Assembly (NCBI GenBank): GCA_046314385.1
Contig: JBKBWZ010000006.1
Location: 6,173-70,172 of the forward strand
Origin: Alphaproteobacteria bacterium
GTDB lineage: Bacteria; Pseudomonadota; Alphaproteobacteria; Micavibrionales; UBA2020
Reading direction: 5' to 3'
DNA length: 64,000 nucleotides
The position numbers were made by a program, and so were the translations under genes. The notes beneath the pieces were generated by a model, which saw nothing but the letters and a program-made list of their open reading frames with translations, was not told where the DNA came from and did not search any database. Of this stretch, positions 4,818-36,716 are shown one piece after another; positions within the stretch are counted from its first letter, which is position 1, and every line of letters begins with the position of its first letter.

Positions 4818-5876
4818 TTATCGGGCGGCTTTGGCTGTGCGGATTTGGCCGAGCAAATGAAACGCGCCGAGCAGCACCCCGCCGCCCAGCAGCGCCAGCA
4901 ACAGCGGCCAGAGCGCATCAAGCCAGAGGCCGCCATCAATCATCGCAGATTCTGCCGGTGCATCGGGCAGGTAAATCACATTTACGATATCACCCACGCG
5001 CCCGCGCGGGGAACTGGTGGCCACTTTGGCGGCGAAAACATGATGATCGCCGCGCGCATCAGTGAAGCCGATTTTGGCGCGGTACATCGTCTTGTGATCG
5101 CTGCCTTGTCTGGCATCAAAACGTTCAATAACGCCCTGCGCCTGTTGGCCATAGAGCGTCAGATCGCGCAGCTGCGTGCCCATATGCCACGCGAATCCCA
5201 GCGCCCCCAGGCCGAATAAAAAAGCCAGCGGCGTGCCCACGCGCAGACTTTTTTCGGTGTCCGCCTGCATGCGCCGCCCGGCGGGCGTTTGCAAATAGGC
5301 CTCGATGGTGGTGAGCTCGGCGGCCAGAAACCGCCCGCTGCGGCGTTTGCGGATTTGCGCGCGAAAGCCCTGTTTGTCCGGCCGCCCGTCTTTGGGCAGC
5401 AGCGTTTTTTTCAGCCGCTGTGCCGCCACCAGCAAAAATATCGCCGCAGAAACCCATGTCGCCGGTGTAAACGGAAAAGAAAAAATGCCATGCGCCAATA
5501 AAACCAGCCCCGGCACAAGAAACACCAGACCGATAAAAATCGCAGCGCGCAAATCACTGCGGATACCCTGCGGATCGCTTTCGAAAACATAGAGCATGAC
5601 TTCGCGCCCCGTTTCCTTGCCTTTGATAAATCCTGATCCGGTATCCGATACTTCTTCAAAGGTATCGCCGTTCGGCATCATGTATTTATAAACCGGGTAA
5701 AACATTTTGCCGTCGCGGCGCACACCGGTGATGACGGCTGGTACACGCCGCGCATATAAATACGTATGCAGCGTGTGCAGCAAAATTGCCCCGCCGATCA
5801 GCGCACAAAGCCCCCCGCCCAGCAAAAAACCCGCCTGCTGGAATGCCATCATGATATCAAACGTCATATCGAACAT
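4818..5876 (-). CDS. membrane protein with two DUF3592-like modules
   Basis: Two repeats of a TM helix plus a beta-rich segment (VITGVRRDGKMFYPVYKYMMPNGDTFEE and GVIERFDARQGSDHKTMYRAKIGFTDARGDHHVF), flanked by TM helices. AGGAGA lies 10 nt upstream of the ATG. Confidence 0.65.
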   Translation of the reverse strand: MFDMTFDIMMAFQQAGFLLGGGLCALIGGAILLHTLHTYLYARRVPAVITGVRRDGKMFYPVYKYMMPNGDTFEEVSDTGSGFIKGKETGREVMLYVFESDPQGIRSDLRAAIFIGLVFLVPGLVLLAHGIFSFPFTPATWVSAAIFLLVAAQRLKKTLLPKDGRPDKQGFRAQIRKRRSGRFLAAELTTIEAYLQTPAGRRMQADTEKSLRVGTPLAFLFGLGALGFAWHMGTQLRDLTLYGQQAQGVIERFDARQGSDHKTMYRAKIGFTDARGDHHVFAAKVATSSPRGRVGDIVNVIYLPDAPAESAMIDGGLWLDALWPLLLALLGGGVLLGAFHLLGQIRTAKAAR

Positions 5877-5990
5877 CGGGTGTTGTCTCCTGCGGGTGTG
5901 CGCTGCCCTTTTTGCGCGGCATCTTTCAACAGACGGCGCGCGGTGCTATGATGACACAAAATACACCACCGCGCGAAAAAAGGACAAGCC

Positions 5991-6389
5991 ATGACCGAAG
6001 CCGCCCCCCAAAAAACCGCCACCCCAAAAACATATGACCCCAACAATATCTTTGCCCGCATCCTGCGCGCGGAAATTCCGTGCAACAAGGTTTTTGAAGA
6101 CGATCACGTTCTTGCTTTCCGCGATATTCAGCCGCAGGCGCCGGTGCATGTGCTGGTCATCCCCAAAGGCGCCTATGTCGATATGGACGATTTCACCGCA
6201 CGCGCCAGCACCGACGAAATCGCCGCCCTGTTCCGTGCGCTGGGGCAGATTGCACGCAGCGAAGGCTTGGCCGAAGCGGGCTATCGCGTCCTGTCCAACT
6301 GCGGGCTGAACGGCGGGCAGGAAGTGCCGCATTTGCATCTGCATTTGGTCGGCGGCCGCGCCCTTGGCCGCATGCTGGCCGCGAATTAA
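5991..6389 (+). CDS. HIT-family (HinT-like) nucleotide hydrolase
   Basis: Histidine-triad motif HLHLHLVGG. N-terminal IFARILRAEIPCNKVFEDDHVLAFRDIQPQAPVHVLVIPK. Confidence 0.9.
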   Translation: MTEAAPQKTATPKTYDPNNIFARILRAEIPCNKVFEDDHVLAFRDIQPQAPVHVLVIPKGAYVDMDDFTARASTDEIAALFRALGQIARSEGLAEAGYRVLSNCGLNGGQEVPHLHLHLVGGRALGRMLAAN

Positions 6390-6489
6390 AACGCAAAGAC
6401 TGCGGCACCCAAGTTAAACCCCTGTTTTTATATTCATTTTAAAATGCGGCGGCGCAAGATAACAAAGTATCACTGCGCCGTATGCAACC

Positions 6490-6517
6490 TTGTCAAAAAT
6501 TGCCGGTCTGGTAGACT
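6490..6517 (+). promoter_or_regulatory. sigma70-like promoter candidate (TTGTCA-16 nt-TAGACT)
   Basis: TTGTCA at 6490-6495 and TAGACT at 6512-6517, about 80 nt upstream of the 6596 start. Confidence 0.3.
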
Positions 6518-6595
6518 GCGACGGAATCAAAGCCTTGGTTTCAGACAACAACACGCAGCAGCGCAAAACAGCGGCGCCGCGTCAGGCAAGGATGC

Positions 6596-8077
6596 ATGGC
6601 AGACAAACGCCGATTGCAGGATCAATTCAAACGCGCCGCGCGAAAAACGCTGCTGGTATCGGCGATGGGTATTGCCGCGCTGGCCGGATGCAGCGGCACG
6701 CCTGTGCGTCAGGACACGCCGGGTGACGCCGACCTGCACAGACCCGTCGCTGCGGTCACCCCGTCCAAAAATGCCGAAGGCCGCAAACTGAGTGCCGAAA
6801 CCGAAGCGATTTTCCGCCGCAATATGCCCACCCCCGTGAACGACCGTCTGCCCGAGCAACAAAGGATCAACGCCTATCTGGATCAGCTCTGCTTCACGAC
6901 CGCAAGCGCGCCCAAAGAAGAACAGCGCGCCATGCGCCGCGCGCTGGAAGATCTGGCGAAATTGCCGCTGACCGGCCGGCCGCTGGTCGAAATGGCCGCG
7001 CGCGAAAATATCCAGTTCTGCAATATCCAGCATCTGCCTGCAGGCATGGGCGCACAATACGTGCCGCCGGTCGGTGCTGTACTGGTGCCCGGCAACATGC
7101 CGCCGGAGCCGATGATTTTGCGCATCGCACATGAAATTTTACATGCGGCGCAGGATAAAAACGGCTTACTGTCTTATCAGTACGATTGGGACATTCACAG
7201 CCGGCTGGCACGCAACCTGTCGATCGAAGCCGCCGCGCTGAGTTTCGAGCTGATGGTCGCTTTTGAAATGAAACAGCAGGGCGATGCCAAACTGTGGGAT
7301 CATATGCGCACCCGATATGCGCAGCAAAGCTCTTATGGCGATGCGCGGCTTTATACACTGACCGAAGAAACATGGGCGCAATCAAAAGCCGAAGGCAAAA
7401 CCGATGACGCCGCGCTGCGCGATGTCGGCAAGGCTTTGTGGACGCGTATGTTCGATAACCCCGGCTGGCTGGATTTTTATCTGAATTTCGAACTGGCGAC
7501 CTATATACGTGACGTCACCAGCGGCGCACTGGATGGCCAGCGCACCCTGCGCAGCGGCGGCTATAGCCAGAGCAAGACCGACAGCGCCGGAAAAATCGGC
7601 AGCGGCGAAAGTTTTACCCGCGGGGCGCGTGTGCCGCCGCTTGAAAAACTGCTGGCCGGCAACGACAAGATGCGTCAGGCCTATGCCGCGGTTGATCTGG
7701 AACGGCACCGCCGGTCACTGGGCGCGGATCATCCGCAAACGCAGGCCTTACGCCGCGCGGCAGTCGCTGACAATAACCCTTATTTGGCTGTTGATTTCGA
7801 AGCGGCGCTGAAGCTGATGCAGCAAAACGCTTTTCCGGATGCGGAGGGGAAAAAGAAATTCGCCTATCTGCATGAATATATGGATGCCGCGCTGAAACCC
7901 GCACGCGCCGCGGTTGCGGAGATCGTGCCCGGCGCCAAAGAAAAACCCGCCGAAGAGCAAAAACCCGAAGCCCTGCCGGAGCCCGAAGGCGATGCCGATA
8001 CCCCCCGCCCCGTGCCGCCGCGCGACACGCTGGCACAGACAAAACCCGCCGCGCAAAGATTGCCGCGCGCCGGATAA
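6596..8077 (+). CDS. lipoprotein with HExxH motif, putative zinc metalloprotease (paralog family 1 of 3)
   Basis: Lipobox LAGC at aa 28-31. HEILH at nt 7130-7144 in the context RIAHEILHAAQD. Downstream SIEAAALS. Upstream TGRPLVEMAARENIQFCN block is shared with the 19732 and 49336 proteins. Confidence 0.7.
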   Translation: MADKRRLQDQFKRAARKTLLVSAMGIAALAGCSGTPVRQDTPGDADLHRPVAAVTPSKNAEGRKLSAETEAIFRRNMPTPVNDRLPEQQRINAYLDQLCFTTASAPKEEQRAMRRALEDLAKLPLTGRPLVEMAARENIQFCNIQHLPAGMGAQYVPPVGAVLVPGNMPPEPMILRIAHEILHAAQDKNGLLSYQYDWDIHSRLARNLSIEAAALSFELMVAFEMKQQGDAKLWDHMRTRYAQQSSYGDARLYTLTEETWAQSKAEGKTDDAALRDVGKALWTRMFDNPGWLDFYLNFELATYIRDVTSGALDGQRTLRSGGYSQSKTDSAGKIGSGESFTRGARVPPLEKLLAGNDKMRQAYAAVDLERHRRSLGADHPQTQALRRAAVADNNPYLAVDFEAALKLMQQNAFPDAEGKKKFAYLHEYMDAALKPARAAVAEIVPGAKEKPAEEQKPEALPEPEGDADTPRPVPPRDTLAQTKPAAQRLPRAG

Positions 8078-28201: not shown

Positions 28202-29287
28202 TCACACCTTTTGCGATTTGGCGGCGACAATACCCGCCGCCGGGTCCAGCGGCCAGCGCGCGCGCACCGGAAAATCAATATCATCTGTCATGCCGCGCAG
28301 CAACCGCTCCATCCCCGCCCAGGCGATCATGGCGGCATTATCGGTGCAGAGCTTGAGCGGCGGGGCGATAAAACGCAGGCCTTTTTCTGCCGCGATACCT
28401 TCCAGCACGCTGCGCAGGCGTTTGTTTGCCGCAACGCCGCCCGCCACAACCAGCGCGGGCGATGGCGGCGACAGCGCCAGATAATCGATCATTGCATGAC
28501 GGATACGGTCGGCCAGAATATCGGCAACGGTTTCCTGAAAACTGGCGCAGAGATCGGCGGCATCGGCGCGTGAAACGGCACCCGCCGGAAAGCCGTCAAT
28601 CATGCGCCGCACGGCGGTCTTGAGGCCGGAGAAAGAAAAATCACAGCCCGGTTTGCCCAGCATCGGGCGCGGCAGCGGATATTTTGCGCGCGCGGCCGCG
28701 ATGTCTTCGCATGCGGCGGCCAGTTTTTCAATCGCCGGCCCGCCCGGCCAGCCAAGGCCGAGCAGTTTGGCGGTTTTGTCAAAAGCCTCGCCCACCGCAT
28801 CGTCAATCGTCGTGCCAAGGCGCGTATAGTCGCCGACATCTTTTGCGACCAAAATCTGGCAATGCCCGCCGGAGACAAGCAGCAGCAGATAAGGGAAAGC
28901 AACATCATCGTCCGTCAGCCGCACGGTTAGCGCGTGGCCTTCCAGATGGTTGACCGCGATTAGCGGCAGGCCGCGCACCTGCGCAATTGCCTTGGCCGTC
29001 ATCACACCGACCAGCACGCCGCCAATCAACCCCGGCCCCGCCGTGACGGCAATCGCGGAGAGATCATCGAGCGTCACGCCCGCGTCATGCAGCGCGTCTT
29101 CGACCAGATGGTCCATATGTTCCAGATGCGCGCGCGCGGCAACTTCGGGCACAACGCCGCCATAGGCCAGATGCTCGCGCTGGCTGAGCACCTGATGCGC
29201 CAGAATACGCCGGTCTTCGCCGACGATGGCGACGGCGGTTTCGTCACAGCTGCTTTCGATGCCCAATATCAGTCGCGGTTTTGTCAT
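28202..29287 (-). CDS. tsaD: tRNA N6-adenosine threonylcarbamoyltransferase
   Basis: [33 protein letters not shown] and [13 protein letters not shown] are Kae1/TsaD signatures. Confidence 0.92.
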
Positions 29288-29410
29288 GCCCCCCTTATAT
29301 CAGTCTTCGGCGCGGATTTCACCCGTAAAGAGATGCCATAATGCGTGCAATTGACAGCCCCGCCGCCTTCGCGCAGACTGCGCTGATTGTTTTTATGACG
29401 GAGAGATTTT

Positions 29411-29650
29411 ATGACGACAATCGATCAGGCACGCGCCGCCAAAGATAAACTGGAAAAACAGCTGATGGGCCGCTTTAACGGCGCCGCATTGCCCGTGAAC
29501 AGTGTCGGCCTCAGCCACGATCAGGCCGGCTATTACGTGGCCGTCGGGCTGGAGCGTCAACCGACCGCCGCCGAAGACGCCAAATTACCCAAAAAATGCG
29601 ATGGCGTGACCGTGAAATACAGCGTCAACGGGCCGATCAACGCGTTTTAA
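29411..29650 (+). CDS. hypothetical small protein (79 aa)
   Basis: GGAGAGA lies upstream of the ATG. Coding-like GC3. No recognisable motif. Confidence 0.5.
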   Translation: MTTIDQARAAKDKLEKQLMGRFNGAALPVNSVGLSHDQAGYYVAVGLERQPTAAEDAKLPKKCDGVTVKYSVNGPINAF

Positions 29651-29762
29651 GCTGCCCGCCTTTCGCCGCAGGACAAGGAATAAAAACAGCTGATATCTGT
29701 TAAAAATTTCTTGTGAAGCTGTTTGTGTTGTAATAATCACTTTCCGGTAGAAGGAGCCGCTC

Positions 29763-29954
29763 ATGACGCGTAAAAAAATCAGCCTTAATTCTATGGTATC
29801 GTTTAATAAAATTTCCGACGCTGGAAACTCCGCAAAAGAAAACCCGGAAGCTTCGGATCATGGCATAAGCCATGACGCGACTGAAAAAAAAGCCCCCCAA
29901 AGGCCAAAAAATAACCATGTCGGCAGCTTCGGTGGCATTTTTTTTACAATATAG
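29763..29954 (+). CDS. small hypothetical peptide (63 aa), paralogous N-terminus with the 30438 peptide
   Basis: GAAGGAG lies 7 nt before the ATG. The N-terminus MTRKKISLNSMVSFN matches MRKTIKLNPVVAFQ of the 30438 ORF. Lies in a low-GC islet. Confidence 0.4.
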   Translation: MTRKKISLNSMVSFNKISDAGNSAKENPEASDHGISHDATEKKAPQRPKNNHVGSFGGIFFTI

Positions 29955-30111
29955 ACCGCTTTGTCCGTTTTTAACGCCGCGGCGCGGATGAAGACGTACC
30001 AAGGCTTTGTTTTAATTTGTATATTTAAACATTAATACATCCCTTTCTGCCACGAACTTCGCTCTGAGGTTCAGCCTGTCGCCAAGATCAGGTGATATAG
30101 TCGCAGCTTAT

Positions 30112-30140
30112 TGACATATTGCAAAGCGCGCGTTAAGTTC
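30112..30140 (+). promoter_or_regulatory. sigma70-like promoter candidate (TTGACA-17 nt-TAAGTT)
   Basis: Perfect -35 TTGACA at 30112-30117, a 17-nt spacer, and TAAGTT at 30135-30140. This is 28 nt upstream of the 30168 ORF. Confidence 0.4.
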
Positions 30141-30167
30141 ATTCTCATAATAAAAGGTGTGTAAAAA

Positions 30168-30410
30168 ATGGAATTCCCCAAAAACATCGCCGCCGGTACG
30201 CGCGGCCAGTTTACCGAAGCTTTCAACAGCATGGCCTATGCACCGCTGGATGCCGCGCGTTTTTATGACGAAGCGCAAAAAGCCGGCTGGCATGAGGCGC
30301 GTATTTTCCCGCCCGGCACGGCCTTGATGTTTGATAACAGCAAGACAGATACCCGCATCACGGTTGATACCGATCGTTTCGGCAACGTAAAGCGTTTCCG
30401 TCAGGGCTGA
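30168..30410 (+). CDS. hypothetical small protein (80 aa)
   Basis: AAAGG lies upstream of the ATG and a promoter candidate is just upstream. No recognisable motif. Confidence 0.45.
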   Translation: MEFPKNIAAGTRGQFTEAFNSMAYAPLDAARFYDEAQKAGWHEARIFPPGTALMFDNSKTDTRITVDTDRFGNVKRFRQG

Positions 30411-30437
30411 TTTTTTATATTTATACGGGGACATATA

Positions 30438-30605
30438 ATGCGCAAAACAATCAAACTTAATCCTGTCGTTGCTTTTCAAAGCGCCGCCTCGTCTAACAGC
30501 GCCGCGCCAGAAAAGCACTTGCCTGCGCCTCCAAAAGAAGAAAAAGAGCCGGAAACCAAAAATCGTCCGCTCGTTGGCCGCGCAGGGCCGCGCGCTTGGT
30601 ACTAA
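30438..30605 (+). CDS. small hypothetical peptide (55 aa), paralogous N-terminus with the 29763 peptide
   Basis: My own translation (below the ORF-track cutoff) is MRKTIKLNPVVAFQSAASSNSAAPEKHLPAPPKEEKEPETKNRPLVGRAGPRAWY. GGGGA lies 7 nt upstream. A terminator follows. Confidence 0.4.
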   Translation: MRKTIKLNPVVAFQSAASSNSAAPEKHLPAPPKEEKEPETKNRPLVGRAGPRAWY

Positions 30606-30630
30606 AACCGCAGCCAAACGCCCCCGTTTA

Positions 30631-30659
30631 AAAAACCGGCCCCTGCGCCGGTTTTTTTC
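30631..30659 (+). terminator. rho-independent terminator
   Basis: Stem AACCGGC / GCCGGTT with a 6-nt loop, followed by T7. Confidence 0.6.
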
Positions 30660-30779
30660 TGCGCGGCGGCGCCTTCACATAAGCCGCCGCCCCCATAAAA
30701 ATGCGCATGTTCCTTGGCTTTCCCGCACAAAAAGCCTAATAAAAAAGGGAGCAGCAAACACAGCAGTATGACGAGAGAC

Positions 30780-31709
30780 ATGAAAACAAAGATCAATATC
30801 GGTACGCGCGGCAGCCCGCTGGCGCTGGCGCAGGCGGAATTGCTGGCAAGCGCGCTGCGCCGCGCGCATCCGCATCTGGCCGCGCCCGAAGCGATTGAAT
30901 TCGTCATCATCACCACCACCGGCGACCGCATTCAGGACCGTCCGCTGTCCGAAGTAGGCGGCAAGGGTCTTTTCACCAAAGAAATCGAAGAGGCGCTTTT
31001 GGATGGCAGCATCGATGCCGCTGTGCATTCGATGAAAGACATGCCGACCGAACTGCCCGCGGGTCTTGTCATCCCCTGCCTGCTGCCGCGCGAAGATGAG
31101 CGCGATGCTTTTTTCAGCCGCGGCGGCGAAACGCTCGACACCTTACCCGCAGGCGCGGTTGTAGGCACTTCAAGCCTGCGGCGTCAGGCGATCATCCTTG
31201 CCCGCCGGCCTGATCTGAAAGTCGTGATGTTTCGCGGCAATGTCGGCACACGGTTGCAAAAATTGCAAGACGGCGCGGTTGATGCCACGTTGCTGGCGGT
31301 GGCGGGGCTGAACCGGCTTGGCAAAAGCGATCTGATACAAACCGTGCTGCAGCCCGATGTGATGCTGCCCGCCGTGGCGCAAGGCGCCGTCGGAATCGAA
31401 ATCCGCGAGGAGGATGCGGAGATGGCGGCCTTGCTCGCCCCTGTACATTGCCCTGTGACCGCGCTGCGCGTCTGTGCCGAGCGCGCCTTTCTGGCCGCCA
31501 TGGACGGGTCTTGCAAAACGCCGCTGGCCGCGCTGATGTCTGTGCCCGACCCCGAAGGACGCGCGCGCTTCGATGCGCTGTCGGCCAACCCCGACGGCAC
31601 AGACCTGCACAAGGTCAGCTATCTGATGCAGGTGCTGCACGAAGGAGACGCCGAGCGTCTGGGCCGCAAGGCCGCGGCCGATATCCGCGCGCGGCAGGCG
31701 GCGGCATAA
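30780..31709 (+). CDS. hemC: hydroxymethylbilane synthase (porphobilinogen deaminase)
   Basis: INIGTRGSPLALAQA, IITTTGDRIQDRPL, GGKGLFTKEIE, DAAVHSMKD and GTSSLRRQA are HemC signatures. The start could also be 30768 or 30714. Confidence 0.92.
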   Translation: MKTKINIGTRGSPLALAQAELLASALRRAHPHLAAPEAIEFVIITTTGDRIQDRPLSEVGGKGLFTKEIEEALLDGSIDAAVHSMKDMPTELPAGLVIPCLLPREDERDAFFSRGGETLDTLPAGAVVGTSSLRRQAIILARRPDLKVVMFRGNVGTRLQKLQDGAVDATLLAVAGLNRLGKSDLIQTVLQPDVMLPAVAQGAVGIEIREEDAEMAALLAPVHCPVTALRVCAERAFLAAMDGSCKTPLAALMSVPDPEGRARFDALSANPDGTDLHKVSYLMQVLHEGDAERLGRKAAADIRARQAAA

Positions 31710-31889
31710 CATAATTCCGCGCCGGACAAAAACGCGCATCTGAACGCCGCAAAGATACCGCGGAGGGGAACAAAAAAACCAGTTAATCCTTAACGGGATG
31801 TTCACCGGCGATATATATTATAAAAGACGGCACCGCCGCAGCACCCGTTCAAGGCCGCGCGGCGCCGTAAACAGAAAAAAAGGAAGCAT

Positions 31890-34370
31890 ATGCGCTCCAT
31901 TCTCGTCACACGGCCCGAACCGGCCGGCAGCGAACTGGCCGCCCGATTACGGCGCGAGGGCTTTGAAGCCTATCTGGCACCGCTGAGCCGTTATGTGCCG
32001 GTTGCGGCCGATCTGGACATTGCCACCACCTGCCAGGCTTTGGTCTTTACCAGCGCGCAGGGCGTGGCGCAGTTTCCGCCCGCACCGCAATCGCGCGACA
32101 CCACGGTTTTCGCTGTCGGCGCCGCCACTGCCGAAGCCGCACAGCAAGCCGGATTTGCCCATGTCATCACCGCCGGCGGCGATGTGCGCGATCTGGCGCA
32201 GACGCTGATTGCGCGCAAGGCCGAGCTGGCACTGGATGCCATCTTGCATATTTCGGGCGAAGATACGGCCGAGGATCTCGGCCAGCTGCTGATTGACAGC
32301 GGCATTGCCACGCACAAGCGCGTCGTCTACCGCACCGAATTTATCACCCAGCTGCCGCCGGAAATTGAACGCGCACTGACCGAGGGGAAGATCGATACCG
32401 TTCTCTTGTTCTCGGCCCGCGCGGCGCAGCACTGGCTTAAAATTCTATCGCGCGAAGATTTACGCACCGCCAGCGCCAAGCTGGAAGCCGTCTGCCTGAG
32501 CGACCGCGTTGCCGCCGAACTACGCGGCACACCATGGCGCGCCGTCAAGGTCGCCAAAAGCCCGCAGGTAGAGGCCGTGCTCGACATTCTGCGCGGGGCG
32601 GATACGGCGCCGCCGCTGCCGATCGCCCTGCCTGCGGACCCTGTCATTGATATTTTTGGCGGTATTCGCCCGCTGGCCAACCGTCTCGGCATCACGGCAT
32701 CGACGGTGCAGGGATGGAAAAAACGCGGTATCATCCCCGATGCGCGCGTCGAAGCCATTTACACCGCCGCCGAAGAAGACAACATCGACATCAACGCCAT
32801 GCTGGCCAAAGGACAATACAAGATGACTATGGATGACGCAGGCGGCCGCCACCCCGGTGCACAAGGAAGCGACCGCCGCGGCCCCGACCGCCGCCAGAAC
32901 CGCCCCGCCTATGACGCGCATGGCAATGTGCGATCTGCCACCTATAGCGGCCCTGACCGCCGCACCGGCGGGGATCGCCGTGCGCATCAGGCGCGGGTGC
33001 AGCAGCGCGTGCGTGATGAAAAAATGCGTTTTATCACCCGCACCGTTTTTATGGTTTCGTTTTTTATCGGCGCGCTGGCGCTGGCCGGCACGTTTGTTAT
33101 GGCGCCGGAATTTTTCTCCTTCGCCGAACGCCGCGACCGCGAAAAGGCCTACGAGCAGCAGCTGAAAGAATACGAAGACCAGATCCGCGAGCTGCAAAAA
33201 CGCCAGAACGAGCTGCGCCGCCAGCAAGGCGCAGCACCCTTGCCGCTGGACACGGCGCCGGCGCAGCAAACCGCATCGCCCGGCATCGGCCAGCGGATGA
33301 ACCAGAGCATCCTGCGCGTGCAGGGCGCGGTCGATACCGTAAAAACCACGGTGGGCGGCACGATTGAAGGCGCGCAAAAAACCGTGCAGAAATCCGACAC
33401 CTATCAAGGGTTTCAGAGCCTGATGCGTATGCTGGCGATGCTGAACAACCTGACCCGCACGCAGGAAGGCACGCAGGAAGCAGACGGCATGATGGGCCGC
33501 CTGCGCCAAGTCATGGCGGGCGCACCGAATGACCCCGAAGGGCTCAGCAAAGCCGTCGAGCAGGCGCAAAAAACTGACCCGACGCTGCAAAAAATCATGG
33601 GCGGCGTGGCCCCGAAAGATTTGGGCGCCGCGGCCATGCTGCTGACGATGAACGAGCTGCGCGGCAATATCGGCGGCGGGCAGTCGTTTGAAAGCGACCT
33701 GAAAATCATCGAAAAATACGCAAGCGACGACCCCGAAATGCAGGCCGCGCTGAAACGCGTGGCGCCCTATGCCCGCAGCGGTGTTCTCAGCCGCCAGCAT
33801 CTGCAAAAAGATTTTCGCAACATTGCCGCCGATATCGTGATGGCAAAACTGCAGGGCGAAGATGCTTCGGTGCGCGAACGCGTGATGCAGCGTCTGTCCA
33901 AATACGCCAAGATGCGCAAAATCGACGACATTCAGGGTGACAGCGTGGATGCCACCGTGGCGCGCGCCGAACTGCTGATCGATCAGGGCGACATCAAGGG
34001 CGCCATCCGCGAACTGCAATCGCTGGAAGGTCCGCCGGCCGAAACCGCATCGGCATGGGTGCAGCAGGCCGAAGGTCATGTTGCCGCCGATGATTCATCA
34101 CAGGTGCTGCTGCAAACCGTGCTGGGCATGCTGGGTAACGGCGGTGGCAGCGGGGTTTTCTCCGGCTTTGCGGGCGGCGGCGGTTTCGGCGGCATCGATC
34201 TGAACAGCGCGGTGGGCGATCTGCTGCAACAAATGCCGATGGGTGATATTTTCGGCGGCGAGCTGCCCAACATGGGCGGCCAGACCACCGTACCCTATCT
34301 GTCACCCTCGCTGCAGCAGCAGAACCACGGGCTGGGCAATATGCCGCAGCTGGAAATACCGATGCCTTAA
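31890..34370 (+). CDS. hemD: uroporphyrinogen-III synthase fused in one ORF to an HTH-like segment and a Mic60/mitofilin-type membrane protein
   Basis: aa 1-235 are HemD-like (ILVTRPEP..LVFTSAQGV..VLLFSARAA). aa 253-305 are Cro/YdaS-like (LANRLGITASTVQGWKKRGIIPDARVEAI). aa 326-364 hold four DRR motifs. TM helix at aa 381-405. Coiled coil follows. aa about 575-745 are mitofilin-like (VARAELLIDQGDIKGAIRELQSLEGPPAETASAWVQQAEGHVAADD). There is no stop codon anywhere across the 826 codons. Confidence 0.8.
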   Translation: MRSILVTRPEPAGSELAARLRREGFEAYLAPLSRYVPVAADLDIATTCQALVFTSAQGVAQFPPAPQSRDTTVFAVGAATAEAAQQAGFAHVITAGGDVRDLAQTLIARKAELALDAILHISGEDTAEDLGQLLIDSGIATHKRVVYRTEFITQLPPEIERALTEGKIDTVLLFSARAAQHWLKILSREDLRTASAKLEAVCLSDRVAAELRGTPWRAVKVAKSPQVEAVLDILRGADTAPPLPIALPADPVIDIFGGIRPLANRLGITASTVQGWKKRGIIPDARVEAIYTAAEEDNIDINAMLAKGQYKMTMDDAGGRHPGAQGSDRRGPDRRQNRPAYDAHGNVRSATYSGPDRRTGGDRRAHQARVQQRVRDEKMRFITRTVFMVSFFIGALALAGTFVMAPEFFSFAERRDREKAYEQQLKEYEDQIRELQKRQNELRRQQGAAPLPLDTAPAQQTASPGIGQRMNQSILRVQGAVDTVKTTVGGTIEGAQKTVQKSDTYQGFQSLMRMLAMLNNLTRTQEGTQEADGMMGRLRQVMAGAPNDPEGLSKAVEQAQKTDPTLQKIMGGVAPKDLGAAAMLLTMNELRGNIGGGQSFESDLKIIEKYASDDPEMQAALKRVAPYARSGVLSRQHLQKDFRNIAADIVMAKLQGEDASVRERVMQRLSKYAKMRKIDDIQGDSVDATVARAELLIDQGDIKGAIRELQSLEGPPAETASAWVQQAEGHVAADDSSQVLLQTVLGMLGNGGGSGVFSGFAGGGGFGGIDLNSAVGDLLQQMPMGDIFGGELPNMGGQTTVPYLSPSLQQQNHGLGNMPQLEIPMP

Positions 34371-34504
34371 CCTGTACGCTGTTTTTTTGTTTTGCTGTCT
34401 GCGGTTTTGATTTTTTATTTGTTTGTGTCTTTTGAATCCGAAAACAGGGCAAGACCCGCCCCCGCCCCGAAAGGATACCCCCCCATGAACCGGAGCCGAA
34501 AAAT

Positions 34505-35878
34505 ATGATCCGCGCCCTATGGTTTTTGGCCAGATTGTCTGTGCTTGTTTTTGCGGTCGGCTGGCTGGCCGCGCGGCCGGGCTGGATTACGGTTGACTGG
34601 CTTGGCTACCGCATTGAACTGGCCATCGGCTTTGCCGCGGCGGTGCTGGCTGTTTTGTTGCTGGGCGTGATTTTTATCGACCGCCTGTGGCGCGGGTTTG
34701 TATCGATGCCCGCCACGCTGCGCCGTTACCGCTATACGGTGCGGCGCGAAAAGGGATACCGTGCGCTGACCTCCGGCCTTGTGTCTGTCGCTGCCGGTGA
34801 CCCGCAGGGCGCCGAACGGCACGCGAAAAAAGCCGAAGCCTTGATACCCGCAACGCCGCTGACAAAACTTTTGACCGCGCAGACGGCGCTGCTGAACGGC
34901 AATGCGCCCAAAGCGCGGCGCGAATTTACCGCGCTGCTCGAAGACGGCGAGGCGGCGTTTTTTGGCCTGCGCGGTCTTTTGACGCAGACGCTGAAAGAAG
35001 GCAGCTATGGCGAAGCGCAAACACTGATCCGCAAAGCCGAAGCCTTGCAGCCCAAACGCGTCTGGGTCGTGCGCACCCGTTTTGATATCGAAACCCGCAA
35101 CAAAAGCTGGCCCGAAGCGCTGGAGGTTTTGAAAAAAGCCGAAAAAATGCGCATCTATGATACGCAAACCGCGCGCCGCCACCGCCAAAGCATTTTGACC
35201 GCACAGGCGATGGAAAACGAAAAGCAGGGCTATCTGACCATCGCCGCCAAACAGGCCGCGCGCGCGGCGGGTCTGGATTACGGTTTCGCCCCCGCAAGCC
35301 TTTTGCTGGCCGATCTTTATAGCCGGATTGGCAAGAAACGCGCGGCGCTGCGCACGCTGGAAAAAGCATGGAAGACGCAGCCGCACCCCTCATTGGCTGC
35401 GCTGTGGATGCGTCTGATGCCGCCCGCGCGCAAAGAACCTTCGGTCTATGACACCGGCCGCGATGCCTATCAATGGGCGCGCAAGCTGGGTGATGTGAAC
35501 CCGCAGCATAGCCTGAGCCAGCGCATGATCGGCCATGCCGCGCTTGACGCCAGCCTGTGGAAAGAAGCGCGGGAGCGTTTAACCGCCGCCGCCGATTTCC
35601 GCGCACTGGCCAAGCTGGAGCGCGCCGAAACCGGCAACGAAGCCAAAGCCCGCGAATGGCTAGAGCGCGCCGAAGATTACCCGCCGGAGCCGCGCTGGAT
35701 CTGCGGCAGCTGCGGCCATATCGCGGCGGACTGGCGCGTGCTCTGCGGGCATTGTGCCGCTTTTGATGCGCTCGGCTGGGCCGTGCCGCAAGGTGACGCC
35801 CATAAACCGCAGCCCGCGCTGGCCTTGCCCGATAACGACATCATCGCGCCGCCTGTGGCGCTTTCTGCCGCAAGATAA
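34505..35878 (+). CDS. hemY: HemY-like membrane TPR protein
   Basis: HemY_N-type start with two TM helices and RRYRYTVRREKGYRAL. TPR-like helical body. C-terminal zinc-ribbon-like WICGSCGHIAADWRVLCGHC. Confidence 0.8.
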   Translation: MIRALWFLARLSVLVFAVGWLAARPGWITVDWLGYRIELAIGFAAAVLAVLLLGVIFIDRLWRGFVSMPATLRRYRYTVRREKGYRALTSGLVSVAAGDPQGAERHAKKAEALIPATPLTKLLTAQTALLNGNAPKARREFTALLEDGEAAFFGLRGLLTQTLKEGSYGEAQTLIRKAEALQPKRVWVVRTRFDIETRNKSWPEALEVLKKAEKMRIYDTQTARRHRQSILTAQAMENEKQGYLTIAAKQAARAAGLDYGFAPASLLLADLYSRIGKKRAALRTLEKAWKTQPHPSLAALWMRLMPPARKEPSVYDTGRDAYQWARKLGDVNPQHSLSQRMIGHAALDASLWKEARERLTAAADFRALAKLERAETGNEAKAREWLERAEDYPPEPRWICGSCGHIAADWRVLCGHCAAFDALGWAVPQGDAHKPQPALALPDNDIIAPPVALSAAR

Positions 35879-35883
35879 AACGC

Positions 35884-36252
35884 ATGAAGACACCGCCGCC
35901 GCCAGAAGATGAAAATCCGCTGCCGCGTCAGGGCGCGGGCTGGGCGTCGTTGCTTTTGTCGATTACGGTGGTGATGGGCGGCGGTTTTATTCTGGCGGCG
36001 CGCGTGCTGCCGCCGCTGGTCGGCTTTGACATGGACAAACAAGTCGCAGGCATTGGCGAAGTCGCCGTGATGGGGGTTGTGTTTTGCGTTTTGCTTGTTT
36101 TCCTCATGTATTTGTCTGTGATTGTCTGGTTGATTGTGGCGCGGCTGTTTGTGCCGCGCGAAACGATGTATGCGATTATGATCTATGGCCCGACATCGCG
36201 CTTTGATCATTGGCTGTTCAACCTGCTTTGCCCCGATCATGATGCCGTATGA
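35884..36252 (+). CDS. hypothetical membrane protein (122 aa)
   Basis: Two or three hydrophobic helices. ATGA-coupled to the next gene. Confidence 0.45.
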   Translation: MKTPPPPEDENPLPRQGAGWASLLLSITVVMGGGFILAARVLPPLVGFDMDKQVAGIGEVAVMGVVFCVLLVFLMYLSVIVWLIVARLFVPRETMYAIMIYGPTSRFDHWLFNLLCPDHDAV

Positions 36253-36716
36253 AACCGCCCGCGGTTTATCTGATGCACGGTTTTATCGGTGCGGGTAAAA
36301 GCACTTTTGCCCGCAGCCTTTCTGCCCGAACCGCCGCCCTGCGGCTGAATGCCGACGAATATGTCGCCGCCCGCTTTACGCCTGCGCAAGTCACCGCCGA
36401 TTGGGATACCTGCTTCGCAAGCGCCATCGCCGCGCTGTGGCAGGAAGCCGCCGCACAGACCGCCGCAGGGCGCGATGTTATTCTGGATTTCGGTTTCTGG
36501 ACACGCGAGAGCCGCGACGACGCCCGCGCCCGCATTGCCGCCATGGGCGCGCAAACCGTGCATTATTATATCGATACACCGGATGATATTATTCTGACGC
36601 GGCTGAAAAAACGCGAAGGCGACATTGCCCGCCGCAATCTGGCGCAGTTCGATAGCCTGAAAAAAATGTTTTCGCCGCCGGAGCCGGATGAAGCCGCGAT
36701 TTATATCCGGCCTTAA
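36249..36716 (+). CDS. P-loop kinase-like ATP-binding protein (AAA_33/zeta-like fold)
   Basis: Walker A motif GFIGAGKST near the N-terminus. Small size is typical of this group. Confidence 0.65.
   Translation: MKPPAVYLMHGFIGAGKSTFARSLSARTAALRLNADEYVAARFTPAQVTADWDTCFASAIAALWQEAAAQTAAGRDVILDFGFWTRESRDDARARIAAMGAQTVHYYIDTPDDIILTRLKKREGDIARRNLAQFDSLKKMFSPPEPDEAAIYIRP

Follow-up and report, generated by a model that had tools for sequence, protein, structure and literature searches.

Published descriptions of Mic60 in Alphaproteobacteria comprise a transmembrane (TM) helix, a coiled coil, the LBS and the mitofilin domain only. In Rhodospirillales, Kiloniellales and Rhizobiales, the uroporphyrinogen-III synthase (UROS) HemD is "occasionally fused to Mic60", with the enzyme predicted in the cytoplasm and Mic60 in the periplasm (Muñoz-Gómez et al., bioRxiv 10.1101/2022.06.14.496148; Curr Biol 2023). 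We analysed a stretch of 64,000 nucleotides, here called the window (contig JBKBWZ010000006.1 of GenBank assembly GCA_046314385.1), from an alphaproteobacterium of the Micavibrionales, in which a single open reading frame (ORF) of 826 codons encodes HemD, a helix-turn-helix (HTH) domain of the Cro/YdaS type and Mic60. The HemD-Mic60 fusion itself is already known, the same topology argument has been published, and such proteins are routinely annotated. The new content is modest: the HTH is native to a Mic60 subfamily and highly conserved in it, the fusion recurs and is trivial in mutational terms, and comparison provides evidence for an internal translation start in one clade. A real fusion, an HTH belonging to the Mic60 subfamily and a repeated merger of the two genes are, with high probability, the best explanation for this locus.

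Like the fusions of Muñoz-Gómez et al., the window protein combines HemD and Mic60 in one chain with a membrane anchor at its midpoint, HemD being cytoplasmic and Mic60 periplasmic, and it is encoded within a hemC-hemD-mic60-orf52 cluster; unlike them, it stems from an uncultured Micavibrio-like lineage, which that paper does not name. An HTH domain, a tail with DRR motifs and internal initiation are not mentioned in that paper. Neither did the Mic60 literature searched mention an HTH domain or anything linking Mic60 with helix-turn-helix proteins, and a literature search on "carph-isopro", the NCBIfam name of the domain found here, returned nothing. The window protein shares with the canonical Mic60 of R. 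sphaeroides (433 amino acids, aa) the TM helix, the coiled coil, the C-terminal mitofilin domain and the place of the gene between hemD and orf52, but differs from it by an N-terminal cytoplasmic Cro-like HTH and a long tether, as do 84 of 136 top cluster representatives newly found in a database search described below. A further relative in design is the fused HemD/HemX protein (NCBIfam NF005411, PRK06975), in which HemD is likewise joined to a membrane protein whose gene follows directly downstream in the hem cluster; since a model for it exists in NCBIfam, such fusions are a catalogued, recurrent event. In the window, however, the membrane partner is Mic60 with an HTH, and NF005411 did not match the window protein at E-values up to 1, its relatives reaching 26-33 bits through their HemD part against a cut-off of 414.

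A preliminary description of this DNA, made from the letters alone, had read the ORF as HemD, a Cro/YdaS-type HTH, four DRR motifs, a TM helix, a coiled coil and a mitofilin domain, with no stop codon between the HemD and Mic60 parts. The ORF listing of the window, which shows all 826 codons uninterrupted by an in-frame stop, together with Pfam and NCBIfam profile searches, a hydropathy scan and AlphaFold2 (AF2) models, bore out each of these parts. The HemD part matches Pfam PF02602 (HEM4) at aa 14-231 with an E-value of 4e-37 (127.9 bits, cut-off 27.5). It has the two-lobed UROS fold, as Foldseek with the AF2 model matched 13 UROS chains (E-values 1e-11 to 1e-8, template modelling scores, TM-scores, up to 0.74), among them 3mw8, 3re1 and 4es6 (E ~1e-11, TM-score ~0.7). 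In an alignment of 120 fusion proteins, its loops F53-T54-S55 and F174-S175 are near-invariant, and the HemD part would be expected to be enzymatically competent, converting hydroxymethylbilane to uroporphyrinogen III. The mitofilin domain is matched by PF09731 at aa 598-727 (E 7e-13, 48.7 bits, gathering threshold 27.4; profile positions 463-596 of 614), with helices predicted ahead of the match at aa 503-596 and a weak sequence match of aa 674-728 to the Mic60-Mic19 structure 7pv1. A single TM helix and a coiled coil stand N-terminal to the mitofilin domain, as in Mic60 proteins, and the place of the mic60 part between hemD and hemY_N/orf52 holds for the window and for all 80 related loci examined.

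The full-length AF2 model, for which the 120-sequence alignment served as input, shows HemD with a predicted local distance difference test (pLDDT) score above 90, a low-confidence hinge of six residues (aa 239-244), a confident HTH (aa 247-307), disorder at aa 308-337 and one long helix (aa 363-446) that spans the juxtamembrane stretch, the TM helix and the coiled coil. Disorder follows at aa 455-498, then a helical region at aa 500-750 with pLDDT ~90, and a disordered tail. The stretch from the end of the HTH to the TM helix has an isoelectric point (pI) of 11.1, which satisfies the positive-inside rule. Because this rule, the modelled architecture and the published inference agree, an N-in/C-out topology is indicated. 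We infer that the product is a bitopic inner-membrane protein with HemD, HTH and the Arg-rich DRR tail in the cytoplasm and the Mic60 body in the periplasm, which is also the topology proposed in the preliminary description.

A search with the full protein found at least 120 database proteins that carry HEM4 and Mitofilin in a single chain, at identities from 100% down to ~26%. They are 665-1020 aa long apart from one fragment of 582 aa, nearly all match both PF02602 and PF09731, and those with a name are almost always annotated "uroporphyrinogen-III synthase". Since the same continuous, routinely annotated ORF occurs in these protein clusters and in at least 33 of the 75 species-level genomes with such a locus that were scored in full, the fusion cannot be called unusual, as had been supposed. 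The ratio of nonsynonymous to synonymous substitution (dN/dS) was determined at codon level in nine segments between the window and its orthologues in the related loci L002-L009. It was 0.00-0.41 against L002-L007 wherever dS could be estimated, which was the case for all nine segments in L002-L006, where dS amounts to ~0.4-1.2 for larger segments and reaches 3.2 for short ones. The values for HemD were 0.05-0.18, those for the HTH, the lowest overall, 0.04-0.06 and those for the Mic60 C-terminal region 0.06-0.12. Judged by these sequence comparisons, the neighbouring genes hemD and mic60 are genuinely fused in this ORF and the fusion is maintained by selection, with every segment under purifying selection, and the hinge at aa 236-246 is the remnant of the former hemD end and mic60 start. 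A programmed frameshift or termination releasing HemD was also considered and dropped, no signal for it being seen.

The HTH was sub-threshold in Pfam, where YdaS, P22_Cro, CI and MerR matched at aa 252-305, the scores for P22_Cro and YdaS (PF14549 / PF15943) being 19.1 and 22.1 bits and lying below the gathering thresholds of 30.2 and 30. It exceeds the cut-off of NCBIfam NF046037 ("carph-isopro domain") with 56.3 bits against 38 at aa 250-301 (model positions 2-53 of 54), and fused as well as unfused relatives reach 56-69 bits. An AF2 model of the isolated domain, built from a 16-sequence alignment, has five helices and a pLDDT of 92.8. Its top Foldseek matches in the PDB are Cro proteins of the all-alpha type, namely N15 Cro (TM-score 0.70) and P22 Cro (TM-score 0.67, 31% identity), both with a root-mean-square deviation (rmsd) of 1.2 Å; against the structures 1rzs and 2hin the TM-scores are 0.67-0.71 at an rmsd of 1.2 Å, and Xfaso-1 Cro is also near the top. 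Owing to the small size of the domain, the Foldseek E-values are weak (0.01-0.4), yet all lines of comparison concur. Among viral models, the best matches were Cro, YdaS and DNA-binding proteins with TM-scores up to 0.79, and the PHROG matches were DNA-binding proteins and transcriptional regulators. The likeness to P22 Cro can be followed by eye (VID.FG...R..A..LGI...AVSQWK...IP), and the pattern common to P22 Cro, N15 Cro, YdaS and NF046037 (VI..FG...R..A..LG....(A/T)V.(Q/G)W...IP) goes with the same all-alpha Cro fold; unlike the phage Cro proteins, which are free dimeric repressors, the window HTH is covalently tethered to a membrane protein.

By alignment, no part of the protein is as conserved as the HTH, whose columns show at least 90% conservation over the fusion family, above most columns of HemD or mitofilin. 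Nearly invariant among the 120 proteins are I253, F256, G257, G258, R260, P261, A263, L266 and S271, as well as T272, V273, Q274, G275, W276, R279, I282, P283 and A294. Much of this invariance reflects family-level architecture, given the close P22 Cro pattern. The strict motif FGG[IL]RP[LM]A..L.[IL]..STVQGW..R..IP is present in 112 of the 120 fusion proteins; two more carry a slightly divergent copy, and five are without the domain altogether (P0080, P0081, P0083, P0084, P0120). In the first four of these, HemD runs straight into the DRR region, while the corresponding stretch of P0120 is a long disordered linker.

When one genome of each GTDB species was searched with two HTH peptide patterns, 361 genomes matched, of which the best 80 loci were kept, and hidden Markov models for HemD, HTH, TM/coiled coil and mitofilin, built from the alignment, were run on all ORFs of these loci. 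In all 80, the HTH comes after hemD and before the Mic60 body and is followed by a linker of 37-144 aa and then the TM helix. All parts are in one ORF in ~35 of the loci, including those of Ferruginivarius, Hwanghaeella, Aestuariispira and Rhodovibrio. In the other ~45, among them five Kiloniella species, Pelagibius and Micavibrio aeruginosavorus, hemD (230-260 aa) has its own stop codon and the next ORF (450-630 aa) contains HTH, tether, TM helix and mitofilin. Because the HTH stands between hemD and Mic60 in every locus and begins the unfused Mic60 ORF, it is a native N-terminal cytoplasmic domain of a Mic60 subfamily that has not been discussed before; it had previously been read as a phage-type segment held in the linker of the fusion. 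The subfamily is found in Micavibrio-like, Kiloniellaceae, Rhodovibrio, Inquilinaceae and Azospirillaceae lineages.

The same picture was obtained in an exhaustive phmmer search with a 69-aa HTH fragment against 1.84 billion cluster representatives, which gave 989 clusters at E-values up to 1e-3. Among 136 new proteins from the best 150 of these clusters, 84 are HTH+Mitofilin with the HTH at residues ~5-90, 17 are HemD+HTH+Mitofilin, 32 are short HTH-only sequences, two are tandem-HTH proteins without Mic60 and one combines the HTH with a split mitofilin match. Of the HTH-only sequences, P0137 was checked as a possible marker of another genomic context and discarded, as it lies on a 640-bp contig and is a fragment. 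The two tandem-HTH proteins (P0128, encoded at 5001-6464 of L083, and P0150) are 421-487 aa long, reach ~100 bits with NF046037 and exceed the Pfam cut-off of P22_Cro. Their genomic surroundings are unrelated and comprise a two-component system, a WecG-type glycosyltransferase and a transposase. On the 4x metagenome contig L001, positions 5250-7620 hold hemD, a stand-alone HTH of 94 aa and two Mic60 pieces in different frames, an arrangement that is probably due to frameshift errors or a decaying locus rather than to a true stand-alone HTH gene.

Fusion and separation alternate within the subfamily. A neighbour-joining tree of 75 loci, calculated from the HTH and mitofilin columns (~220), requires at least eight fused/separate changes by Fitch parsimony with a "separate" root, a count that is approximate owing to the crude tree on so few columns. 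The clade of the window comprises 25 loci, all of them fused with a hinge of 7-13 aa, and has the unfused L018 as its sister. The other fusions are scattered over the tree and have hinges of 31-57 aa, a distribution consistent with independent fusion events. In five unfused loci (L031, L047, L055, L060, L072), the stop codon of hemD and the start codon of the HTH-mic60 gene overlap as ATGA, and in others the two genes are a few bases apart, so that a tiny indel suffices to merge them. As HemD and the N-terminus of Mic60 are both cytoplasmic, the fusion is topologically free. Most likely, overlapping co-oriented hemD and HTH-mic60 genes were merged by a small indel, repeatedly, in a topologically permitted and near-neutral event that would fix co-expression and place HemD at the membrane and for which no new mechanism is needed.

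The linker between HTH and TM helix is acidic or rich in Pro, Ala and Ser in most lineages and looks disordered. An Arg-rich module is confined to the window's clade and to the unfused L018 and L047; it follows the pattern ~ERRR..DRRQ-x8-15-G.[VI]-x5-Y.GPDRR.G.DRR..-x4-RQ..RI..EKWRF.NR, after which comes the TM helix. The DRR motifs of the window protein are at aa 328, 333, 356 and 362, and a DRR triplet spacing of x, x+23, x+29 is kept throughout the clade. The DRR segment has no Pfam match; a cyclic di-GMP-binding or other known motif was considered there and dropped.

The window's clade has a Met ~12 residues past the HTH, which in the window is M312 with its ATG at 32823. At a fixed distance before this Met, AAGGA, AAGGG or GAAGGA is found in 20 of 24 clade loci (AAGGA-N9-ATG in the window). 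The Gly codon of the motif is GGA in 18 cases, GGG in three and GGC in none, while the same ORFs elsewhere use GGC for 73%, GGG for 12%, GGT for 10% and GGA for 5% of their Gly residues (n = 1454); the K/E/Q codon before the motif Gly almost always ends in A. The lineages are not independent of each other; even when only the ~7 deep ones with saturated dS are counted, the synonymous bias would be improbable by chance (0.17^7, ~4e-6). Pairing with the anti-Shine-Dalgarno sequence amounts to -5.3 to -10.5 kcal/mol in all 20 loci (-5.3 in the window), a value comparable to that of the annotated ORF start (-5.6) and of orf52 (-6.3), and among the other internal Met codons just 24% attain -5.3 kcal/mol. 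Neither the unfused sister lineage nor any other lineage has the feature, the fused Ferruginivarius sediminum, Aestuariispira insulae and Hwanghaeella included, and many of these other lineages lack any Met between HTH and TM helix.

Several other readings of these data were weighed. A missed stop codon or frameshift between separate hemD and mic60 genes would mimic a fusion, since ATGA-overlapping neighbours can be merged by an error of one nucleotide, and the related low-coverage contig L001 shows a break of the opposite type. The identical continuous frame is nevertheless found in 25 independent species-level assemblies of the clade, a database protein with 100% identity to the window protein (P0001) is encoded on two contigs, and the 11-codon junction has a dN/dS of 0.00-0.38 at dS 0.6-2.0, which leaves a sequencing or assembly artefact a negligible chance. 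Equally, the best sequence and fold matches of the HTH to phage Cro, YdaS and CI might point to an insertion from a phage or mobile element that is peculiar to the linker of the fusion. This is very improbable, as the HTH heads unfused Mic60 proteins in ~45 of the 80 genomes and in the 84 cluster representatives mentioned above, is always followed by tether and TM helix, is the most conserved segment and is not flanked by mobile-element genes; that Mic60 took up a Cro-like domain long ago, before the fusion, would remain compatible with these data. The tethering of a tetrapyrrole enzyme to a membrane-shaping protein, suggested in the preliminary description, could also be an adaptive metabolic and structural coupling that channels tetrapyrrole synthesis to membrane-shaping sites, a reading that appears rather unlikely. 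Fusions do recur independently, deep divergence within a large clade has not undone the fusion, the synteny of hem genes and mic60 is conserved, and the yeast MICOS interacts with ferrochelatase (10.1101/2022.06.14.496148). However, close relatives do well with separate genes, substrate and product of HemD are soluble, the enzyme and the Mic60 body are on opposite sides of the membrane, an internal start, apparently evolved in the window's clade, makes Mic60 independent of HemD there, and the ATGA overlap makes the fusion mutationally cheap. The explanation favoured here, a near-neutral and repeated merger of hemD with an HTH-bearing mic60 gene, has points against it as well: the count of merger events depends on the crude tree, the five fusion proteins that lost the HTH and kept the fusion indicate that the domain is dispensable in some lineages, and in R. 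sphaeroides, where the genes are separate, Mic60 did not co-purify with HemD (10.1101/2022.06.14.496148).

Two further questions concern the products of the gene and the role of the HTH. Initiation at M312 or M314 had been proposed beforehand, and the comparison lends support to M312, although the Shine-Dalgarno sequence of the window is only moderate (-5.3) and no outlier among the internal Met codons within single ORFs, for which reason we can only infer this start. We hold it to be somewhat probable that initiation at M312 yields a second product of aa 312-826 (55.9 kDa) with the DRR tail, the TM helix and Mic60, lacking HemD and HTH. The internal start would then restore a HemD-free Mic60 in the window's clade, and the structural protein could thus be made in excess of the enzyme-bearing form. 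That AAGGA-N9-ATG instead results from a constrained peptide sequence (K/E-G-x3-M-[ST]-D-D) or marks a pause in translation is a substantial possibility in view of the moderate pairing energy, of other internal Met codons in single ORFs that score as well, and of the conservation of the motif G-x3-M-[ST]-D-D itself. A peptide constraint leaves unexplained, however, why 21 of 21 Gly codons are GGA or GGG where GGC is otherwise preferred, why the preceding K/E/Q codon ends in A and why the feature is restricted to the fused clade. The function of the HTH is the least certain point; the reading we prefer, a membrane-tethered DNA-binding module, has something close to an even chance, considering its closeness to bona fide Cro repressors and its conserved and basic recognition helix. 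This is opposed by the net acidic character of the window HTH (pI 4.8) and by a recognition helix that stays the same from one subclade to the next although the promoter regions vary; nor was a conserved palindromic operator detected in a search with 5-nt half-sites and spacers of 0-12 over 1.7 kb upstream of hemD in 81 loci, a weak test that returned only generic GC-rich sequences. Alternatively, the HTH may be a protein-docking module with a cytoskeletal or tetrapyrrole-pathway protein as partner, possibly HemD itself. RodZ provides the analogy, a bitopic cell-shape/envelope protein whose Cro/CI-type HTH binds MreB and whose basic juxtamembrane region binds RNA. The likeness is one of architecture only, with a cytoplasmic HTH, a basic juxtamembrane segment, a single TM helix and a periplasmic domain, which is Mic60 in the window protein. 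Docking, which we rate as nearly as likely as DNA binding but short of an even chance, would fit the extreme conservation of surface residues over lineages with differing promoters, the failure to detect a conserved operator near the cluster and the acidity of the HTH, and HemD as partner would explain the frequent tolerance of the HemD fusion. It is at odds with the missing sequence relationship to RodZ (neither HTH_25 nor RodZ_C, DUF4115, matched the window protein in Pfam and NCBIfam), with a recognition-helix pattern that closely resembles that of DNA-binding P22 Cro and with the failure of HemD to co-purify with the Mic60 of R. sphaeroides, which may, however, be a species without the HTH. 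Roles of the HTH other than DNA binding or docking are unlikely.

The features of the region are compiled in Table 1.

Table 1. Fusion gene, its parts and its neighbours in the window (nucleotide positions counted from the first letter of the window).
Feature	Position	Strand	Remarks
Whole fusion ORF	31890..34370	+	ATG start, 826 aa, 89.2 kDa, stop codon within span
HemD domain, aa 1-235	31890..32594	+	Cytoplasmic (predicted); Pfam HEM4, UROS fold
HemD-HTH hinge, aa 236-246	32595..32627	+	pLDDT <50 at aa 239-244
Cro/YdaS-like HTH, aa 247-307	32628..32810	+	NCBIfam NF046037; recognition-helix region STVQGWKKRG
Candidate internal ribosome-binding site AAGGA (32809-32813) and ATG of M312 (32823-32825)	32809..32825	+	Putative product aa 312-826, 55.9 kDa
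Arg-rich juxtamembrane region with four DRR, aa 321-374	32850..33011	+	DRR at aa 328, 333, 356 and 362
Single TM helix, ~aa 380-404	33027..33101	+	Hydropathy scan; inside AF2 helix aa 363-446
Periplasmic (predicted) coiled-coil helix, aa 405-446, then disorder, aa 455-498	33102..33227	+	AF2 secondary structure, pLDDT
Helical Mic60 C-terminal region, aa 500-750	33387..34139	+	Contains Pfam Mitofilin match aa 598-727
Gly-rich disordered tail, aa 751-826	34140..34367	+	pLDDT <50; ends in PY.SP
Promoter-like block CTTAACGGGATGTTCAC-N6-TATATATTAT	31789..31822	+	In the 180-nt hemC-to-fusion spacer
gpsA	27184-28284	-	Neighbour
tsaD	28202-29287	-	Neighbour
hemC (porphobilinogen deaminase)	30714..31709	+	Upstream neighbour; Pfam Porphobil_deam E 1e-82 and Porphobil_deamC
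hemY_N/TPR membrane protein ("Orf52" in the Mic60 literature)	34505..35878	+	Downstream neighbour; Pfam HemY_N E 2e-23 and TPR repeats

With gpsA and tsaD on the reverse strand followed by hemC, the fusion ORF and hemY_N/orf52 on the forward strand, the window has the standard alphaproteobacterial hemC-hemD-mic60-orf52 layout. The longest ORF of hemC starts with a TTG that lacks a Shine-Dalgarno sequence (ΔG +0.7), and the true start is probably an internal ATG ~50 nt downstream (~30768; MTRDMKTKINIGTRGS...), which fits the start of the Pfam domain better. In the fusion protein, the consensus of the family (A1) keeps "PYxSP" near the C-terminus of the Gly-rich tail, and this motif may serve for contact in the periplasm or with the outer membrane.

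A scan for the sigma-70 consensus identified TTAACG-18-TATATT at 31790-31819, within the promoter-like block. The scan of 29200-36300 yielded three sites against 3.1 expected from shuffles and is uninformative alone; the site gains weight from its conservation and not from this count. L002-L007 carry an almost identical block and L009 and L013 one that can still be recognised, at coding dS values as given above for L002-L006 and higher or saturated ones against L007. This suggests that the fusion gene has a promoter of its own, separate from that of hemC. A different upstream block, ATTGAC..GCTATGCT, was seen in L010-L012 and L014. The gap between tsaD and hemC (29300-30700) measures 1.4 kb, has a GC content of 43-52% against ~62% around it and contains no long ORF. 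Within it, an 80-aa ORF at 30168-30410 on the forward strand (MEFPKNIAAGTRGQFTEAF...) is conserved at protein level with 92% in L002, 84% in L004 and L007, 51% in L013 and 45% in L009 and is probably a real small gene, while conservation of the piece at 29408-29650 does not extend beyond L002, the closest relative. Neither of the two small ORFs of the gap, the 80-aa ORF included, has a Pfam match, and Rfam gave no match at gathering thresholds over the whole window.

The closest metagenome-assembled genomes with this locus are labelled Alphaproteobacteria, Micavibrio, Rhodospirillaceae or Bdellovibrionales/Pseudobdellovibrionaceae, the "Bdellovibrionales" labels being due to the placement of Micavibrio under Bdellovibrionota by NCBI. 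The Mic60/hem synteny agrees with the alphaproteobacterial placement in GTDB. Single genomes with this locus bear the titles Anaerolineae, Patescibacteria or Flavobacteriales, apparently through mistakes in binning or labelling.

What the HTH, the fusion and the internal start may signify is deduced from comparison among uncultured lineages. The ease and frequency of the HemD fusion would be explained by overlapping genes and by the cytoplasmic location of both ends to be joined, and the internal start, if true, would be a tidy case in which a fused gene continues to supply the structural protein in unfused form. The most far-reaching combination, a large Mic60 subfamily, fused and unfused, with a functional membrane-tethered DNA-binding domain of the Cro type on its cytoplasmic side, the equivalent of the matrix side, plus a two-product gene (89 + 56 kDa) in the window's clade, is doubtful on the present comparison; were it true, a cristae organiser of the ancestral type would physically couple the nucleoid or the transcription of specific genes to envelope architecture. 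The findings may be relevant to the origin of MICOS and cristae, since many alphaproteobacterial Mic60 proteins go beyond the scheme of TM helix, coiled coil and mitofilin and carry a highly conserved cytoplasmic Cro-like domain that neither the model organisms nor the Mic60 literature consulted reveal. The HTH may therefore be regarded as a concrete candidate for a link from Mic60 to partners in the cytoplasm, be they DNA or protein.

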